Source of the DNA: Escherichia coli
GTDB taxonomy: Bacteria; Pseudomonadota; Gammaproteobacteria; Enterobacterales; Enterobacteriaceae
Length of the DNA: 64,000 nt
Reading direction: 5' to 3' (one strand)
NCBI RefSeq assembly: GCF_030013205.1
Contig: NZ_CP122648.1
Shown: positions 4,740 through 47,377 of the stretch, one piece after another
Position numbering within the stretch: the stretch's first letter is position 1
How the letters are laid out: each line of letters begins with the position of its first letter
Made by a program: the position numbers and the translations under genes
Notes under the pieces: generated by a model
What the model was told of the DNA's origin: nothing
The model's database searches: none
What the model saw: the letters and a program-made list of their open reading frames with translations, nothing else

Positions 4740-5486
4740 ATGTTAAGTATTAAAGATTTACACGTCAGCGTGGAAGATAAAGCTATCCTGCGTGGATTAA
4801 GCCTCGACGTTCGTCCCGGCGAAGTTCACGCCATTATGGGGCCAAACGGTTCTGGCAAAAGTACCTTATCGGCAACGCTTGCCGGGCGAGAAGATTATGA
4901 GGTGACGGGCGGCACGGTTGAGTTCAAAGGCAAAGATTTGCTTGCGCTGTCGCCGGAAGATCGTGCAGGTGAAGGCATCTTTATGGCCTTCCAGTATCCG
5001 GTGGAAATTCCCGGCGTCAGTAACCAGTTTTTCCTGCAAACGGCACTTAATGCGGTGCGCAGCTATCGCGGCCAGGAAACGCTCGACCGCTTTGATTTTC
5101 AGGATTTGATGGAAGAGAAAATCGCTCTCCTGAAGATGCCGGAAGATTTATTAACCCGTTCGGTAAACGTTGGTTTTTCCGGCGGCGAGAAAAAGCGCAA
5201 CGATATTTTGCAAATGGCGGTGCTGGAACCGGAGTTATGTATTCTTGATGAGTCGGACTCCGGGCTGGATATTGACGCATTAAAAGTGGTTGCCGATGGC
5301 GTGAACTCGCTGCGTGACGGCAAGCGCTCATTCATCATTGTTACGCACTACCAACGCATTCTCGACTACATCAAGCCTGATTACGTCCATGTACTATATC
5401 AGGGACGAATTGTGAAATCCGGCGATTTCACGTTGGTCAAACAACTGGAGGAGCAGGGTTATGGCTGGCTTACCGAACAGCAGTAA
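4740..5486 (+). CDS. sufC: Fe-S cluster assembly ATPase SufC
   Basis: 248 aa with Walker A GPNGSGKST and ABC signature. Confidence 0.95.
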   Translation: MLSIKDLHVSVEDKAILRGLSLDVRPGEVHAIMGPNGSGKSTLSATLAGREDYEVTGGTVEFKGKDLLALSPEDRAGEGIFMAFQYPVEIPGVSNQFFLQTALNAVRSYRGQETLDRFDFQDLMEEKIALLKMPEDLLTRSVNVGFSGGEKKRNDILQMAVLEPELCILDESDSGLDIDALKVVADGVNSLRDGKRSFIIVTHYQRILDYIKPDYVHVLYQGRIVKSGDFTLVKQLEEQGYGWLTEQQ

Positions 5487-6732
5487 CGCGCTGCAACAGT
5501 GGCATCACTTGTTTGAAGCTGAAGGGACAAAACGCTCACCGCAAGCACAGCAGCATTTACAACAATTGCTGCGTACCGGACTGCCGACACGGAAACATGA
5601 AAACTGGAAATATACGCCGCTGGAAGGGCTGACCAATAGCCAGTTTGTCAGCATTGCGGGAGAGATATCCCCACAGCAGCGTGATGCCTTAGCGTTAACG
5701 TTAGACGCCGTGCGGCTGGTGTTTGTTGATGGACGTTACGTGCCCGCGCTGAGCGATGCAACTGAAGGCAGCGGATATGAAGTGAGCATTAACGACGACC
5801 GTCAGGGGTTACCCGACGCTATTCAGGCGGAAGTGTTTCTGCATTTGACGGAAAGCCTGGCACAAAGCGTGACGCATATCGCCGTGAAGCGCGGTCAACG
5901 ACCGGCAAAGCGATTGCTGTTAATGCATATAACCCAGGGCGTGGCAGGTGAAGAGGTGAACACTGCCCATTACCGACATCATCTGGATCTGGCGGAAGGT
6001 GCCGAAGCAACGGTGATCGAACATTTTGTCAGCCTTAATGATGCTCGTCATTTTACTGGGGCACGGTTCACTATCAATGTCGCAGCGAACGCCCACTTGC
6101 AGCATATCAAGCTGGCGTTTGAAAACCCGCTCAGTCACCACTTTGCCCATAACGATTTGTTGCTGGCAGACGATGCCACCGCATTTAGCCACAGTTTCCT
6201 GCTGGGTGGCGCAGTGTTACGACACAACACCAGTTCGCAACTCAATGGCGAAAACAGCACGCTGCGGATCAATAGCCTGGCGATGCCGGTGAAAAACGAG
6301 GTGTGTGATACCCGTACCTGGCTGGAACACAATAAAGGTTTTTGTAACAGCCGACAGTTGCACAAAACTATCGTCAGCGACAAAGGCCGCGCGGTATTTA
6401 ACGGTTTGATCAACGTCGCGCAGCACGCCATCAAAACGGATGGTCAGATGACCAACAATAATCTGCTGATGGGCAAACTGGCGGAAGTGGATACGAAACC
6501 ACAGCTGGAAATCTATGCAGATGATGTGAAATGCAGCCACGGCGCGACGGTGGGGCGTATTGATGACGAACAGATGTTTTATCTGCGCTCGCGCGGGATC
6601 AATCAGCAAGATGCCCAGCAGATGATCATCTACGCCTTTGCTGCTGAACTGACGGAAGCACTGCGTGATGAGGGGCTTAAACAGCAGGTGCTGGCCCGAA
6701 TCGGTCAACGACTGCCAGGAGGTGCAAGATGA
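5461..6732 (+). CDS. sufD: Fe-S cluster assembly protein SufD
   Basis: 423 aa; overlaps sufC by 26 nt (translational coupling). Confidence 0.95.
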
Positions 6733-7949
6733 CTTTTTCCGTCGACAAAGTGCGGGCCGACTTTCCGGTGCTTTCTCGTGAGGTAAACGGTTTGCCGCTG
6801 GCTTATCTCGACAGCGCCGCCAGTGCGCAGAAACCGAGCCAGGTAATTGACGCCGAGGCCGAGTTTTATCGTCACGGCTACGCCGCGGTGCATCGCGGTA
6901 TTCATACCTTAAGCGCCCAGGCGACCGAGAAAATGGAGAACGTGCGCAAGCGGGCATCGCTGTTTATTAATGCCCGTTCGGCGGAAGAGCTGGTGTTCGT
7001 CCGCGGCACGACGGAAGGGATCAATCTGGTCGCCAATAGCTGGGGCAACAGCAATGTGCGGGCGGGCGATAACATCATCATCAGTCAGATGGAGCACCAC
7101 GCTAACATTGTCCCCTGGCAGATGCTTTGCGCACGCGTTGGCGCAGAGCTGCGTGTGATCCCGCTCAATCCCGACGGTACGTTGCAACTGGAGACGCTAC
7201 CTACGCTGTTTGATGAGAAAACTCGCCTGCTGGCAATTACTCATGTCTCCAACGTGCTGGGAACGGAAAATCCGCTGGCGGAAATGATCACGCTTGCGCA
7301 TCAGCATGGCGCAAAAGTACTGGTGGATGGCGCTCAGGCGGTGATGCATCATCCGGTGGACGTTCAGGCGCTGGATTGCGATTTTTACGTGTTCTCCGGG
7401 CATAAACTGTATGGCCCCACTGGGATTGGCATTCTTTATGTCAAAGAAGCCTTGCTACAGGAGATGCCGCCGTGGGAAGGGGGCGGTTCTATGATCGCCA
7501 CCGTCAGCCTGAGTGAAGGCACTACCTGGACCAAAGCACCATGGCGGTTTGAAGCCGGTACACCCAATACCGGGGGCATCATTGGTCTTGGCGCGGCGCT
7601 GGAGTATGTGTCGGCGCTGGGGCTTAATAACATAGCCGAGTATGAACAGAATCTGATGCACTACGCGCTATCACAGCTGGAATCTGTACCGGATCTCACT
7701 CTCTATGGCCCGCAGAACAGGCTTGGCGTTATTGCTTTTAATCTCGGTAAACACCACGCCTATGATGTTGGCAGTTTTCTCGATAACTACGGCATTGCTG
7801 TGCGTACCGGACATCACTGCGCTATGCCATTAATGGCCTATTACAACGTTCCTGCTATGTGTCGGGCGTCGCTGGCCATGTATAACACCCATGAAGAAGT
7901 GGATCGTCTGGTGACCGGCCTGCAACGAATTCACCGTTTGCTGGGATAA
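6729..7949 (+). CDS. sufS: cysteine desulfurase SufS (PLP-dependent)
   Basis: 406 aa with PLP-lysine motif SGHKLYGP; 4-nt overlap with sufD. Confidence 0.95.
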
Positions 7950-20248: not shown

Positions 20249-20554
20249 TCAGGCGAGTTTTGCCTGACTGATTTGACTAAGTGGCTCATTGACATCGAAA
20301 ACTTTGGCGACAACTTCCTCAACGCCGAGATTTTTCAGTCGGGCAGTATGTTTTTCCAGATAGGCAAGGGCGTTTTTTTCATCAGTAAAAAGGTAGATCC
20401 CACCGGCTTCGTGGTTCTTTTCACTTTCTGTCCATACCTTCCACAGAAAACCAGGTTCCTGATTAATCGACTCAGCAAGCGGTTTAAGCTGCTCAGCCAT
20501 TGCGTCGCCAAATGGGCCATTGAAAGAAAAATGAAGTTGTAACAAAGTTGCCAT
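20249..20554 (-). CDS. ydhR: putative monooxygenase YdhR (Dabb-type)
   Basis: 101-aa ORF recognised as YdhR. Confidence 0.85.
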
Positions 20555-20662
20555 AGCGATTCTCCTTCTGATAACGCATACGAAGACAGTGTAAATCTTT
20601 TAACGTATTGGATACAGAGAAGAAACAGAGGGAAAAAAGGAGAAGACCAGATTAAGAAAATC

Positions 20663-20739
20663 TGGTGCGTCCGAGTGGACTCGAACCACCGACCCCCACC
20701 ATGTCAAGGTGGTGCTCTAACCAACTGAGCTACGGACGC
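20663..20739 (-). tRNA. valW: tRNA-Val (anticodon GAC), valW-type
   Basis: Reverse complement reads GCGTCCGTAGCTCAGTTGGTTAGAGCACCACCTTGACATGGTGGGGGTCGGTGGTTCGAGTCCACTCGGACGCACCA with encoded CCA. Confidence 0.95.
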
Positions 20740-20743
20740 AGGA

Positions 20744-20820
20744 TGGTGCGTTCAATTGGACTCGAACCAACGACCCCCACCATGTCAAGGTGGTGCTCTA
20801 ACCAACTGAGCTATGAACGC
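20744..20820 (-). tRNA. valV: tRNA-Val (anticodon GAC), valV-type
   Basis: Reverse complement reads GCGTTCATAGCTCAGTTGGTTAGAGCACCACCTTGACATGGTGGGGGTCGTTGGTTCGAGTCCAATTGAACGCACCA; 4-nt spacer to valW. Confidence 0.95.
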
Positions 20821-29412: not shown

Positions 29413-29456
29413 TCCATTTCACTCCAGACCCTAACTTCAGCTCCTGCAAAATCGCA

Positions 29457-29472
29457 AGGTAAACGTTTGCCT
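29457..29472 (-). promoter_or_regulatory. PUR box (PurR operator) in the purR 5' region
   Basis: Minus strand reads AGGCAAACGTTTACCT, matching the PurR operator consensus ANGCAAACGTTTNCNT; purR is autoregulated. Confidence 0.6.
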
Positions 29473-29710
29473 TTACACACCTTACGCACAACAAAAGTGT
29501 TGCGGTACGCCGGAAAAACGACACGGAGCGTCAGGAAGGGGTCAATGGCCAGTACGCAAATAGTGTAAGCGTGGAATTTTGGCCGATCTTGACGAAAAGG
29601 GGAAGTGGTAAAAACACTTATCATTATAAATGACGGGAGATTTTTTCATCACAGTGTGTAAAAATGCGTAATATCACTTTTTGTGTGGTAATAAAAAAGG
29701 AGAAAACTTG

Positions 29711-29800
29711 ATGAGCACCGACCTTAAATTTTCACTGGTAACAACGATTATCGTCCTCGGTTTGATCGTGGCCGTGGGTTTGACTGCCGCGCTGCACTGA
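29711..29800 (+). CDS. ynhF: small membrane protein YnhF (29 aa)
   Basis: ATG...TGA ORF encoding MSTDLKFSLVTTIIVLGLIVAVGLTAALH with a GGAG RBS upstream; below the ORF-track size cutoff. Confidence 0.7.
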   Translation: MSTDLKFSLVTTIIVLGLIVAVGLTAALH

Positions 29801-29965
29801 TTTCCTCTCGAGGGAGCGCGTTCTCCCTCGCATCTCCTTCCTGTTTGTTAGCAAAATGGCAAAAGTGTTTTCTCTTTTTGTTATTTTCATTTTTTTGTGA
29901 TTGCTGTCATGCTTTCGCCACTTTAATGAATATCGCGTAATGACGCGAAGAGGTGGAGATAAGGC

Positions 29966-42597: not shown

Positions 42598-43119
42598 ATG
42601 AAACGTTTTAGTCTGGCCATTCTGGCGCTGGTTGTTGCGACCGGCGCACAAGCTGCCAGTGAAAAAGTCGAGATGAACCTCGTCACGTCGCAAGGGGTTG
42701 GGCAGTCAATTGGTAGCGTCACCATTACTGAAACCGATAAAGGTCTGGAGTTTTCGCCCGATCTGAAAGCATTACCCCCCGGTGAACATGGCTTCCATAT
42801 TCATGCCAAAGGAAGCTGCCAGCCAGCCACCAAAGATGGCAAAGCCAGCGCCGCGGAATCCGCAGGCGGGCATCTTGATCCACAAAATACCGGTAAACAT
42901 GAAGGGCCAGAAGGTGCCGGGCATTTAGGCGATCTGCCTGCACTGGTCGTCAATAATGACGGCAAAGCTACCGATGCCGTCATCGCACCTCGTCTGAAAT
43001 CACTGGATGAAGTCAAAGACAAAGCACTGATGGTCCACGTTGGCGGCGATAATATGTCCGATCAACCTAAACCGCTGGGCGGTGGCGGTGAACGCTATGC
43101 CTGTGGTGTAATTAAGTAA
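42598..43119 (+). CDS. sodC: periplasmic Cu,Zn superoxide dismutase
   Basis: Internal start MKRFSLAILALVVATGAQA (signal peptide) gives 173 aa; Cu/Zn ligand His motifs. Confidence 0.93.
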   Translation: MKRFSLAILALVVATGAQAASEKVEMNLVTSQGVGQSIGSVTITETDKGLEFSPDLKALPPGEHGFHIHAKGSCQPATKDGKASAAESAGGHLDPQNTGKHEGPEGAGHLGDLPALVVNNDGKATDAVIAPRLKSLDEVKDKALMVHVGGDNMSDQPKPLGGGGERYACGVIK

Positions 43120-45132
43120 TTAAGAGGCCAGCGTACCTTGTGGCGGTGCTTGCTCAAGTTGCGAAAGCGAGCAGTACAGCCGCCAGACAATTGCCGCCAG
43201 CTCGCGGGCGGCAGGTTGATGATGGCGGGCAAGGCTGTCGCAAATCCGCTGTAATTCTTCAAGTGTGGCCGCCAGTGATTTTTGCTGAACGCCACGCTCA
43301 CTCATCACTCCGCGCAACAGTGAAATACAGTTATCCCGTACTCGCGATAACGGATCGGAACGCGATTCCCAGTCGCGCAATTGCCAGACAACATGAGAAC
43401 AGTTCAGCAGCACTACACCCCAGCGTAATAACCAACGGCGAGCCAGCGCATCTTGGCTGTTACTCAACTGACTGACGTGATGATAAGTGAGCGATTCAAA
43501 TTCGCTTTCACTCAGTGTTGGATGGCGGCTTAGCTGATCGACAAAATCCCGGCGCAGCGCGCGAATATGACGACGGCTTTTACGAGCATCCGACCCTGGA
43601 CGCAAAATGGCGAACGCTAACCACGCCAGCGCAACGCCAACGATTTTTGCCAGATTATCGTTAAGAAAATCAGCAAAATCATACACCGGGGGATTAGTGA
43701 CAGCGATAAACGAACCCATAAAAACAATCAGTTGCCCCCACAGTGCGGCAAATTTGGGCATCTGCAATTTAAGAAGCTGCATTGTCGCCAGCAGTGGAAA
43801 GAGAAACAGTAAAAATTGCCACAGATCGCTAATCTGGACCATCAGGCCAAATTTGACCACAAAGCTGAATAGCGAAAGTAACACCAGAGTGCGCATCAGT
43901 AGTGACAACGACTTAAACGGTGCTGCGACGGCGGAGTAGAGTACGCAGCTAATTGCTGCCAGCGTTAATGCATTGGCACCGGCATCCCATTGCGAAGCAA
44001 TACTCCATGCGCCAATCATCATCAACGTACAAAATGTACGCAGTCCGCTCCACATAGCTTCGGCGTTATCGGTATGACGAGCCAGGCCGGATGTCCGTGG
44101 GAGTCTGGTATGATCATCCACACCGCTTTGCAGACGATGTAATTCCTGACTACTTTGCAGATAAAGGCGGCAAAAATAACGTAGTCGCTGCCAGAAGGCG
44201 ACGTGCCGGTAGTCGGCGACGTTGGTCGGGCGTAGCGGGGCGATAATACGTGCGACGGTGTAAACATCTGTTTGCGAACTGGCGAGCGCCGTCAGCAGCT
44301 GTTCGAGAATTTCTCGTGTGGCACATGGCGGTGAGGGCCAGTTGAGCAACATACGTCGCAGGCTGGAGATGACACTGGTCATACGTAATTGCTGGTGGAG
44401 CAGCGCATTAAGGCGTGCGTTTTGCTGGCGAAAACGATAGTGGCTCCAGAAAGCCTGGATACGGAGCAAATTCATGGTCAGTATCTGTCCAATCACCCCC
44501 TCATGTGCTGCACGAATGGCATCGGTTGTTTCAGGCTGCCAGAGTAAACTGGCATGTTCCAGTAATCGGGCGTGCATGTTTTTCAATGCGGTTAAAAGGG
44601 CAGTAGCATCGGAACTGCTCGGCAGGATCATCATCATCATGCCGCCGCACAAAATACCGACAATCACCTCGCAAACGCGCGCCTGAGCGATATCCCACAG
44701 CTGGCTGGCCTCAGTAATATTAACCATCGGAAAGGCGATGATGGCAGCCGTGTAGCCCGCCAGTTGAAATGCATACGCGACATTATTCGTGAAGTGCGCA
44801 CAGGCCCAGGTACAAAAGCCAAGCCACGCCGCCATGCTCAAAAGAAAAAACCACGGCTCATTGAGCGTATGTCCGGCAAGAAGCAGTGCCGCAATGGCTC
44901 CGAGCAAACTGCCAGCGATGCGTCCGAGGCTTTTGCTGATGACACCGTCAACGGTGGGAAAGCTAACCACGGCAGCCGAGGTCATCGCCCAATAGGGTTC
45001 ATCCAGATTTAAATAATAGGCAACCGTCAGCGCCAGACACATGGCAATGGTATTGCGTAACGCATAACGCCATTGCGCCAGCGTGGCCCTGAACCAGGGC
45101 AAATTGCGTAAGGACCATGACGATGCGTTCAT
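43120..45132 (-). CDS. ydhK: FUSC-family (AaeB-like) putative efflux transporter YdhK
   Basis: 670 aa with two hydrophobic domains separated by a cytoplasmic region. Confidence 0.88.
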
Positions 45133-45989
45133 TATTGACCTACGGCAATGCTACAGGTGGTGCCCGACACCAGCGTGACATCGCCTGGGACTTTATCCAG
45201 CGCAAAGCGGACGGGAACGCGTTGGGCAAGTCGAACCCAGGGGACGTTAGGTTTCACATCCGGAATAAGGCTTGAGTCACTTTCAACGCTCTGATCATAA
45301 ATCGCCCGACCGATACTGGAAACGTGACCCTGTAACGTTTTGTTATCACTATAGAGGGTAATTTGTGCTGGTGCACCTTCGCGGATATGGCGCAACTTGG
45401 TTTCTTCAAAATAACCAATGACGTAAAACGAGTGGCTGTCGACAAGGGCAAACAGCGGTTTCCCGGTGTCAGCGTAATCGCCGATGCGGGTAGTGAGGTT
45501 AGTCACCCATCCACTCACCGGGGCGCGAATTTCCGTTTGCGCCAGTTGCCATTGTGCCTGTTTCAGCGTCGCCTGTGCGGCATCAACACTGGCCTGCATC
45601 GCTTTAACATTGAGGTTAGCGGTATCGAGTTCTTCGGCAGAAATAAAATTTTGTGAGAGATGACGACGACGATTCGCTTCGTTATTGGCTTTTGCGAGGT
45701 CAGATTGCGCTTTCGCCAGCTGAGCCTGTGCGTTCAGCTCGGCGATCTGAAAGGGCGTTTTATCGATCGTGAGCAGAAGATCCCCCGCGTTAACCAGTTG
45801 GTTGTCTTTTATATTCAGCTCAACAATACGTCCCGACACCTGAGGGGTGATAGAAACCTGTTCTGCGCGTATTTTCCCGTCGCGTGTCCACGGAGATTGC
45901 ATGTAATAATTCCACAGCCACCATCCGGCAAGAACCGCAACTACCGCTACAATGATTGTTGAGAAATACTTAATTGTTTTAATTGACAT
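45132..45989 (-). CDS. ydhJ: HlyD-family membrane-fusion protein YdhJ (AaeA-like)
   Basis: ORF 45132..46031; internal start MSIKTIKYF gives 285 aa; 1-nt overlap with ydhK start. Confidence 0.88.
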
Positions 45990-45991
45990 AG

Positions 45992-46228
45992 TTACCACGC
46001 AATCAGTATTGCCAGGGCAAGGCAAACGCAAATCGCAAACAGCGATAAATCCATTAACAAGGGATGCCAGATGTCACCGGCGTAGATCCAGCCACGAAGC
46101 AGGCGGTGTACGACAAGCCAGATGACGAATCCAAACGCGAAGGCTTTGAAAAACGGAGGAAAGTAGACGGACGCACCGAACACCAGATCTTGTAAGGGCA
46201 ATCCTGTTGCATTGAGCATAAACTTCAC
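45992..46228 (-). CDS. ydhI: DUF1656-family small membrane protein YdhI (AaeX-like)
   Basis: 78-aa hydrophobic ORF. Confidence 0.85.
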
Positions 46229-46400
46229 AAAGTAGATTCCTTTACGACCGAATATATTGCGTTAGATTAATAAATATTCTTTAAGTGCGAAAAATTTACG
46301 CGCAATTTCTGAAAAATATGTCTGACGGTAACCAAATGCAGCAATACATTTGTTTTAGCAATACAATTGCTGCACACTATTCTAAAAGCCGCATTATATC

Positions 46401-46412
46401 TTAGCAAGCTAA
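46401..46412. promoter_or_regulatory. SlyA binding site in the slyA/ydhI divergent promoter region
   Basis: Perfect palindrome TTAGCAAGCTAA (SlyA consensus) about 10 bp upstream of the slyA ORF. Confidence 0.65.
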
Positions 46413-46422
46413 TTATAAGGAG

Positions 46423-46863
46423 ATGAAATTGGAATCGCCACTAGGTTCTGATCTGGCACGGTTGGTGCGCATATGGCGTGCTCTGATAGACCATCGCCTG
46501 AAACCGCTGGAGTTAACACAAACCCATTGGGTTACGTTACACAATATCCATCAGTTACCTCCAGACCAGTCGCAAATTCAACTGGCAAAAGCGATTGGCA
46601 TCGAGCAGCCATCACTGGTCCGTACTCTGGACCAACTGGAAGAAAAAGGGTTAATTTCGCGTCAAACTTGTGCCAGCGATCGTCGGGCTAAACGTATTAA
46701 ACTGACGGAAAAGGCAGAGCCGCTGATCAGCGAAATGGAAGCTGTTATTAACAAAACCCGCGCGGAAATTTTACATGGCATCTCCGCAGAGGAACTGGAA
46801 CAACTGATTAAGCTCATCGCAAAACTTGAGCATAATATCATTGAGTTACAGGCCAAAGGGTGA
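46423..46863 (+). CDS. slyA: MarR-family transcriptional regulator SlyA
   Basis: 146-aa ORF; the annotated 144-aa product would start at the TTG at 46429. Confidence 0.93.
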
Positions 46864-46909: not shown

Positions 46910-47377
46910 TTAGCGCGGGGAAACGGTCACCTGACTGCCATTGCTGGCCAGTACGACACGTTGGCCCGGAGAGAAACGAGTGTTGCCTTGTTTCTGTACC
47001 ACCATGATGGTATTACCATCGTCTTTACGAATTTCCAGCTCGACACCCTGCGTTTTGTTCATTGCACTCTGTACGCCCTGACCGGCTACGCCACCTGCAA
47101 CAGCGCCTGCAGCAGTAGCCAGAGAACGCCCGGTTCCGCCACCAACAGTATTCCCCAGGAAACCACCAAGAACAGCACCGCCAATTGCGCCGATAACGTT
47201 GGAATCATCACCGCCCTGAATCTGTACCGGACGTACGTTAACGATGGTGCCATAGCTGACATTCTGTACTTGTTTCGCTTCAGAAGCGGTATAAACATCC
47301 CCTGACAGGGTGTCGTTATTAACACAACCGACAAGAGACAGACCTACCATTGAAACAACCAATACGCGTTTAATCAT
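46910..47377 (-). CDS. slyB: outer-membrane lipoprotein SlyB
   Basis: 155 aa, lipobox LVGC, Gly-rich region. Confidence 0.93.
   Translation of the reverse strand: MIKRVLVVSMVGLSLVGCVNNDTLSGDVYTASEAKQVQNVSYGTIVNVRPVQIQGGDDSNVIGAIGGAVLGGFLGNTVGGGTGRSLATAAGAVAGGVAGQGVQSAMNKTQGVELEIRKDDGNTIMVVQKQGNTRFSPGQRVVLASNGSQVTVSPR

Follow-up and report, generated by a model that had tools for sequence, protein, structure and literature searches.

The slyA–ydhIJK locus of Escherichia coli: a conserved SlyA box beside a SlyA-controlled operon for a putative AaeXAB-like export system

The MarR-type regulator gene slyA and the divergently oriented genes ydhIJK, encoding a putative efflux system, have been described for Salmonella Typhimurium and Escherichia coli K-12 (PMC6401476, PMC5797941). 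The same locus, with the same SlyA box, gene order and divergence, is present in a 64,000-nucleotide stretch of an E. coli genome (contig NZ_CP122648.1; this whole 64-kb stretch is referred to as the window). It represents the known and well-conserved slyA–ydhIJK module of E. coli and the Enterobacteriaceae, such that its recognition is correct but ordinary. Control of the module by SlyA via the ydhI–slyA spacer, combined with YdhK-based export by a paralogue of AaeXAB that is linked to a different type of regulator, is considered a highly probable explanation of the locus as a whole.

In case of E. coli, Curran et al. (2017) amplified exactly the 200-bp spacer of this locus and observed a specific shift with SlyA in the electrophoretic mobility shift assay (EMSA), at an apparent dissociation constant of about 50–100 nM (PMC5797941). 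In vitro repression by purified SlyA of Salmonella amounts to about 19-fold for ydhI and about 5-fold for slyA and is relieved by salicylate (Will et al. 2019, mBio; PMC6401476). DNA binding and repression by the Salmonella protein are relieved by salicylate, benzoate, 4-hydroxybenzoate and 2,3-dihydroxybenzoate, the latter two representing endogenous SlyA ligands according to Will & Fang (2025). The same authors found ydhIJK among the SlyA-repressed genes by RNA sequencing and stated the homology to AaeAB (PMC12506092). Deletion of ydhIJK in Salmonella delays growth when fusaric acid is present, and a slyA mutant grows better (PMC6401476). Proteomic analysis of Klebsiella revealed a 45- to more than 100-fold increase of YdhJ upon loss of the SlyA orthologue KvrA. 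The announcement of RNA sequencing data for a slyA mutant of E. coli BW25113 does not mention ydhIJK.

An earlier note on the window, based on its letters only, had proposed SlyA-controlled efflux of an unknown substrate, to be checked by EMSA with the spacer, by the response of ydhI to SlyA and by susceptibility profiling of a ydhIJK deletion. The proposed control agrees with the EMSA in E. coli (PMC5797941), the in vitro repression in Salmonella (PMC6401476) and the effect of KvrA loss in Klebsiella. The proposed checks had already been published with positive outcome: the shift of the spacer (PMC5797941), the regulation of ydhI, the sign of which is ambiguous in E. coli (PMC6401476, PMC5797941), and, for Salmonella, the deletion phenotype in the form of the growth delay with fusaric acid (PMC6401476). 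Since binding, regulation and resistance phenotype are all published, the observation as such was already known. Describing the substrate as unknown went too far in view of the fusaric acid phenotype (PMC6401476), but still applies to the physiological substrate (PMC12506092).

The aaeXAB genes of E. coli K-12 have the same order as ydhIJK (DUF1656 protein, HlyD-type adaptor, FUSC transporter) and are likewise divergent from their regulator gene. AaeX, AaeA and AaeB share 33, 41 and 24 % identity with YdhI, YdhJ and YdhK, respectively, and Aae models are the top NCBIfam matches for all three Ydh proteins. However, the equivalog cut-offs for AaeX, AaeA and AaeB are not reached (21.4 vs. 82, 243.4 vs. 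400 and 117.8 vs. 870 bits, respectively); scores so far below the ortholog level identify YdhIJK and AaeXAB as paralogues. The two systems also differ in their regulators, i.e., the LysR-type AaeR, annotated as transcriptional activator beside aaeX in K-12, versus the MarR-type SlyA in case of ydhIJK, and in their published substrates (PMC12506092). Thus, the previous designation as AaeXAB-like is right with respect to gene order and domain content, whereas calling the operon an AaeXAB would be wrong.

As in marRAB and in emrRAB with MprA, the efflux operon is accompanied by the gene for a MarR-family dimer, which binds to a pseudo-palindrome in the promoter region and is released by aromatic carboxylates. 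SlyA differs from the classical MarR-type repressors in that its main role in enteric bacteria is the counter-silencing of H-NS-repressed genes, and in that the linkage to the pump genes has been lost in many lineages: within the Escherichia/Salmonella cluster slyA is almost always linked to ydhJ/ydhK, and in other taxa this linkage is eroded (PMC6401476). A further group of related systems comprises FusABCDE, FuaABC and the Bucl8-associated tetrapartite pump of Burkholderia and Stenotrophomonas (PMC7682875), which share with ydhIJK the FUSC protein, the small DUF protein, the adaptor and the fusaric acid phenotype. These operons encode their own outer-membrane factor, whereas for ydhIJK no gene for such a factor was found within a distance of 2.5 kb.

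Gene coordinates were taken from a 100 %-identical genome as annotated in RefSeq and moved into window numbering, in concordance with a six-frame list of open reading frames. Three genes are tightly packed on the minus strand: ydhI (45992–46228; GTG start) for a small DUF1656 membrane protein of 78 amino acids, ydhJ (45132–45989) for an HlyD/EmrA-type periplasmic adaptor (membrane fusion protein) of 285 amino acids, and ydhK (43120–45132) for an inner-membrane transporter of the FUSC/ArAE family of 670 amino acids (Pfam and RefSeq in each case). Divergently oriented on the plus strand is slyA (46429–46863; TTG start), encoding a MarR-family winged-helix regulator of 144 amino acids (Pfam, NCBIfam, RefSeq). 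The SlyA assignment is supported by the NCBIfam equivalog NF002926 (278.9 bits vs. a cut-off of 120; residues 1–143 of 144) and by Pfam MarR (61.5 bits). The outer gene boundaries given in the earlier note were exact, and its description of the three genes as overlapping holds for ydhJ/ydhK, where the junction TAATG has 1 nt in common at 45132 (ydhJ stop and ydhK ATG), but not for ydhI/ydhJ, where a 2-nt gap (TAA-CT-ATG) separates the ydhI stop (45992) from the ydhJ ATG (45989). Its slyA start at ATG 46423 has to be replaced by the annotated TTG at 46429, since this UUG start is backed by experiment (PMC3173223); the ATG abuts the Shine-Dalgarno sequence AAGGAG with zero spacing.

A 4-kb query across the locus matched 5425 of 5426 complete E. 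coli genomes and was 100 % identical to a group of chromosomes of swine enterotoxigenic E. coli (ETEC) and O139:H1 strains. Compared to K-12, the genes are 98.2–99.3 % identical at the DNA level and the spacer differs by one base, i.e., changes are confined to the strain level. For comparison beyond the species, one genome per species was scanned for SlyA relatives, yielding 80 loci from Escherichia, Citrobacter, Salmonella, Enterobacter, Klebsiella, Kosakonia and other genera. In 77 of these 80 species, ydhI, ydhJ and ydhK are located divergently upstream of slyA, as in the window, where the intergenic region shared by regulator gene and pump operon contains a pseudo-palindromic operator. A mobile or recently acquired module was rejected on the basis of this synteny and of the presence of the region in all but one of the E. 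coli genomes.

The ydhI–slyA spacer (46229–46428; 200 bp) has a GC content of 31.5 %, compared to 50.6 % for the window. It harbours the SlyA box TTAGCAAGCTAA at 46401–46412 (-28 to -17 relative to the slyA TTG), thus placed towards the slyA side, with a distance of 173 bp to the ydhI GTG. This box is the single occurrence of this 12-mer in the window, where about 0.008 exact occurrences are expected for both strands, and Curran et al. tabulated it as PslyA site "22 bp upstream of slyA" (PMC5797941). What had been noted as a perfect SlyA box is indeed a 12/12 match to the published consensus; as a palindrome it is imperfect, since the reverse complement mismatches at the two central bases (arms TTAGC/GCTAA around AA). 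The exact box at the same offset was found in 78 of the 80 species, which argues against chance. Moreover, the slyA-proximal ~95 bp of the spacer are strongly conserved across genera, as evident from the spacer alignment and from column conservation over the 80 loci. This block includes the Shine-Dalgarno sequence and, 3 nt upstream of the box, a hexamer resembling TATAAT, while the ydhI-proximal ~100 bp are highly variable. Judged by this conservation, TTAGCAAGCTAA qualifies as a real and strongly constrained element.

The exact box at -28 is also retained in the three species in which ydhIJK is missing or only short remnants of it are left, namely Intestinirhabdus alba (L040), Kosakonia oryziphila (L046) and a metagenome-assembled genome (L082); these represent independent pump losses within the cluster of otherwise near-complete linkage. 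Therefore, the main task of the box is most likely autoregulation of slyA, in agreement with its position at or just downstream of a putative proximal slyA promoter. The respective -10-like hexamer (46392–46397, plus strand) lies directly upstream of the box; it reads TATAAT in 56 of the 80 species and CATAAT in K-12, and its role in a promoter is putative.

Alternatively, the box could be a truly shared operator covering the -35 region of a conserved long-leader ydhI promoter, such that one SlyA dimer shuts off slyA and ydhIJK together. A promoter scan indeed retrieved, as only sigma-70-like match between 45900 and 47000, a pair of hexamers on the ydhI strand (minus) with a 17-nt spacer, of which the -35 (TTGCTA, 46407–46402) is located inside the box and the -10 (TAGAAT, 46384–46379) in the conserved block; not only the box but also ATTCTA (68 of 80 species) is widely conserved. 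However, this promoter reaches 9/12 consensus positions only, a quality of which shuffled versions of the region contain 2.0 sites on average, and promoter and leader of slyA on the opposite strand can account for the conservation. Transcription from there would also need a leader of ~144 nt that traverses the variable half of the spacer. Moreover, the box is kept where ydhIJK is missing. Finally, footprinting in Salmonella placed the salicylate-sensitive site near the ydhI -35 in a 12-mer that is 75 % identical to the consensus, not in the perfect box (PMC6401476). A shared operator is thus regarded as quite improbable, and the earlier reading of the box as operator of ydhI as an over-reading of what is probably the autoregulatory operator of slyA.

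Besides the box, other sequences in the spacer may serve SlyA in the control of ydhIJK. At a threshold of at least 9 of 12 matches to the SlyA consensus, 30 sites were found in the window, three of them within the 200-bp spacer, i.e., consensus-like sites are enriched there. In addition to TTAGCAAGCTAA, these are TTAGCAATACAA at 46355–46366 (9/12), located within the conserved block, and TTAGATTAATAA at 46262–46273, a TTAN6TAA motif with 9/12 matches on the other strand. Sites of the TTAN6TAA type occur in several genera at the offset of TTAGCAATACAA (-74). The ydhI-proximal TTAGATTAATAA, 33 bp from the ydhI GTG, is confined to Escherichia; the table of Curran et al. gives its position as "161 bp upstream of slyA" (PMC5797941).

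The position of TTAGATTAATAA bears on the possibility that ydhIJK of E. coli is mainly transcribed from an envelope-stress sigma-E promoter, with SlyA modulating it through a site that covers the -10 region. A sigma-E-like match (GCACTT-N16-TCTAA; 46288–46262, minus strand) is situated 33 bp upstream of the ydhI GTG, its -10 is overlapped by TTAGATTAATAA, and ydhJ and ydhK have been treated as genes of the sigma-E regulon in E. coli (PMC2685091). On its own, however, the pattern is weak: in its loose form it occurs 9 times in the window compared to about 7 times expected from shuffles, and the corresponding spacer lacks it in all 77 other species tested. Being no rarer than chance and absent from these species, the match is kept as a low-confidence lead only, and transcription mainly by sigma-E, while possible, appears doubtful.

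Domain composition of the transport proteins is in accordance with an AaeXAB-like system. YdhI matches Pfam DUF1656 (53.9 bits) and has two hydrophobic segments. YdhJ matches HlyD_3, HlyD_D23 and CusB_dom_1, possesses a single N-terminal hydrophobic segment (residues 8–26) as membrane anchor, and has EmrA, AcrA and MacA as closest solved relatives. YdhK matches the FUSC profile (PF04632) with 461.7 bits (gathering score 30.9) over profile positions 1–658 of 660. Searching solved structures with the YdhK sequence returned nothing meaningful, therefore a fold search was used. The family collected for this purpose comprised 2931 members from 1.84 billion representative proteins, of which 84 full-length members were aligned, and the AlphaFold2 model obtained from this alignment had a mean predicted local distance difference test (pLDDT) score of 93.8 and a predicted template modelling (pTM) score of 0.91. 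From the helix pattern of this model, YdhK is predicted to be built as a twofold repeat of a transmembrane bundle with an ensuing cytosolic helical domain; a BLASTP comparison of the N-terminal with the C-terminal half did not detect an internal duplication (E = 0.18).

A Foldseek search of the PDB with the YdhK model retrieved nine chains of the plant proteins ALMT1 and ALMT9 at a probability of 1.00, with all other matches at or below 0.18; the plant anion channels ALMT1/9/12 are the only full-length solved fold relatives, and the modelled transmembrane bundle and cytosolic helical domain can be superposed on the solved ALMTs. ALMTs are homodimeric organic-anion channels. In AtALMT1, AtALMT9, GmALMT12/QUAC1 and Rv2571c of Mycobacterium tuberculosis, the dimers are formed from single repeats, whereas YdhK has two repeats per chain in the model. 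YdhK also differs from the ALMTs and Rv2571c by its adaptor and small-subunit partners, and channel activity of YdhK is putative. For M. tuberculosis, a 2026 preprint described a FUSC-domain protein as an ALMT-like anion channel and proposed exporter of alpha-ketoglutarate with an essential pore arginine. R152 of YdhK, invariant across the 84 aligned family members, is presumably the equivalent of this arginine. The other family-invariant residues W103, Y120 and G159 are likewise present in the window protein, and Asp takes the place of the nearly invariant Gly62.

This replacement is one of few changes relative to K-12. YdhK of the window and of K-12 differ at three residues (D62G, A101S and C270G in the direction from window to K-12), and SlyA differs by K128T in comparison with K-12. 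Codon 62 (44947–44949, minus strand) belongs to the motif PTVGGVISKS. The Asp62 allele, searched with a 46-nt probe centred on the codon, is present in 17 of the 5426 complete E. coli genomes, and all isolates among the matches listed are from swine (ETEC, O139:H1 and related). In the spacer, the sole difference from K-12 is a T instead of A at position 46395, converting the -10-like hexamer from CATAAT to CATTAT. The 46-nt context of this allele is exactly conserved in 54 of the 5426 genomes, and CATTAT was encountered in only 1 of the 80 other species. As a putative effect of these changes, the pump may work differently in this lineage, or slyA may be expressed to a different extent.

Impairment of the pump in the window strain would be a possible consequence of the Gly62 exchange; the module would then be regulatory baggage rather than a working exporter. 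Gly62 is found in K-12, in all 76 orthologues of other species and in at least 90 % of the 84 distant FUSC-family members, and the rarity of the Asp allele points in the same direction. On the other hand, ydhK retains an uninterrupted reading frame, and its two further substitutions are located in variable columns of the alignment. The AlphaFold2 prediction is still of high confidence, albeit insensitive to point mutations. An impaired pump is therefore tentatively considered, yet held to be unlikely.

Taken together, SlyA-controlled export via YdhK would operate as follows. A SlyA dimer binds the AT-rich 200-bp spacer with the box at 46401–46412 as the site of highest affinity. This box is situated immediately downstream of the conserved -10-like hexamer, 17 bp before the slyA TTG, and SlyA bound there most likely autoregulates slyA. 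The weaker 9/12 sites nearer to ydhI, and/or spreading of SlyA from the box, would control the divergent ydhIJK. Aromatic carboxylates bind SlyA and free it from the DNA, as shown in Salmonella. Judged by the fold, the two ALMT-like repeats of YdhK would form a pseudo-dimeric central pore that most likely conducts aromatic carboxylate anions out of the cytoplasm, with YdhJ as inner-membrane-anchored adaptor and YdhI as small two-helix subunit. Exit of the anion would probably be driven by the membrane potential and assisted by the adaptor.

Several points weigh against this explanation. With respect to transport, the likeness of YdhK to ALMTs rests on a predicted model and a distant fold similarity at 13–16 % identity, the fusaric acid phenotype is a growth delay and not a transport assay, and the window YdhK may not be fully functional owing to G62D. 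With respect to regulation, the site through which SlyA may act on ydhI in E. coli is a putative assignment, and the sign of SlyA control in E. coli may differ from that in Salmonella and Klebsiella: overproduction of SlyA in E. coli K-12 increased ydhIJK 2.2-fold, slyA and ydhIJK were referred to as "SlyA-activated divergent operons" (PMC5797941), and E. coli slyA was reported, according to the title of Corbett 2007, to be positively autoregulated.

These latter findings form the basis for assuming that the role of SlyA at ydhIJK of E. coli, in contrast to Salmonella, is that of an anti-H-NS activator (counter-silencer) and not that of a repressor. The operon was also flagged as H-NS-associated (PMC5797941), and the low GC content of the spacer compared to the window is consistent with an involvement of H-NS. 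However, the 2.2-fold change stems from multicopy overexpression, whereas transcription with purified Salmonella components demonstrated direct repression (PMC6401476) and loss of the regulator in Klebsiella led to strong derepression. Furthermore, the box and the slyA-proximal half of the spacer are nearly identical in Escherichia, Salmonella and Klebsiella. Counter-silencing as mode of action is judged rather unlikely.

Since the ligands of SlyA are aromatic carboxylates, a pump or channel for their export would act back on the activity of SlyA and hence on virulence-gene expression. One may speculate that YdhK is a single-chain pseudo-dimeric organic-anion channel of the ALMT type and not a conventional proton-coupled pump, which together with YdhJ and YdhI vents endogenous aromatic carboxylates that are themselves SlyA ligands, i.e., 4-hydroxybenzoate and 2,3-dihydroxybenzoate. 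The resulting homeostasis loop would set the level of active SlyA for counter-silencing of virulence genes and would be rewired in swine ETEC by G62D and the change at 46395. In this far-reaching form, the proposal has a low probability. The feedback of aromatic-carboxylate export on SlyA is nevertheless the only angle of wider interest. As a discovery the locus carries little weight, with the locus itself, the box, SlyA binding, regulation and resistance phenotype already contained in the literature; mildly novel are only the way in which the three SlyA sites are likely to share their tasks, the resemblance of YdhK to ALMTs in architecture, and two variants specific to the lineage, G62D and that of the -10 hexamer.

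Neighbours at the locus are sodC, ydhF, ydhL, slyA, slyB and anmK. According to the RefSeq annotation, sodC (42598–43119, plus strand) and slyB (46910–47377, minus strand) flank the module. The longest open reading frame of sodC starts at ATG 42547 (190 amino acids) compared to the RefSeq start at 42598 (173 amino acids), an ordinary ambiguity of start codons. The convergent genes sodC (end at 43119) and ydhK (stop at 43120–43122) abut with zero intergenic bases. Not a single base being available for a terminator between them, the transcripts have to end inside, or run into, the coding sequence of each other. The back-to-back stop codons of these two genes at 43112–43123 happen to form the TTAN6TAA match TTAAGTAATTAA.

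On the other side of the module, the distance from slyA to slyB in many genomes of Enterobacter, Klebsiella, Lelliottia, Kluyvera and Trabulsiella exceeds that in Escherichia, Citrobacter and Salmonella by about 1.5 kb (about 5430–7000 in loci L032, L034–L036, L039, L041–L043, L048–L052 and others). The larger distance indicates that one or more extra genes have been inserted between slyA and slyB. An Rfam scan of the whole window detected no RNA families in or near the slyA–ydhIJK locus. Elsewhere in the window, it retrieved three matches at gathering score: the small RNA STnc550 at 29413–29803 (396 bits), the antisense RNA HPnc0260 at 20538–20820 on the plus strand, in partial overlap with one of two tRNA genes on the minus strand, and the small RNA rydB at 2484–2544.

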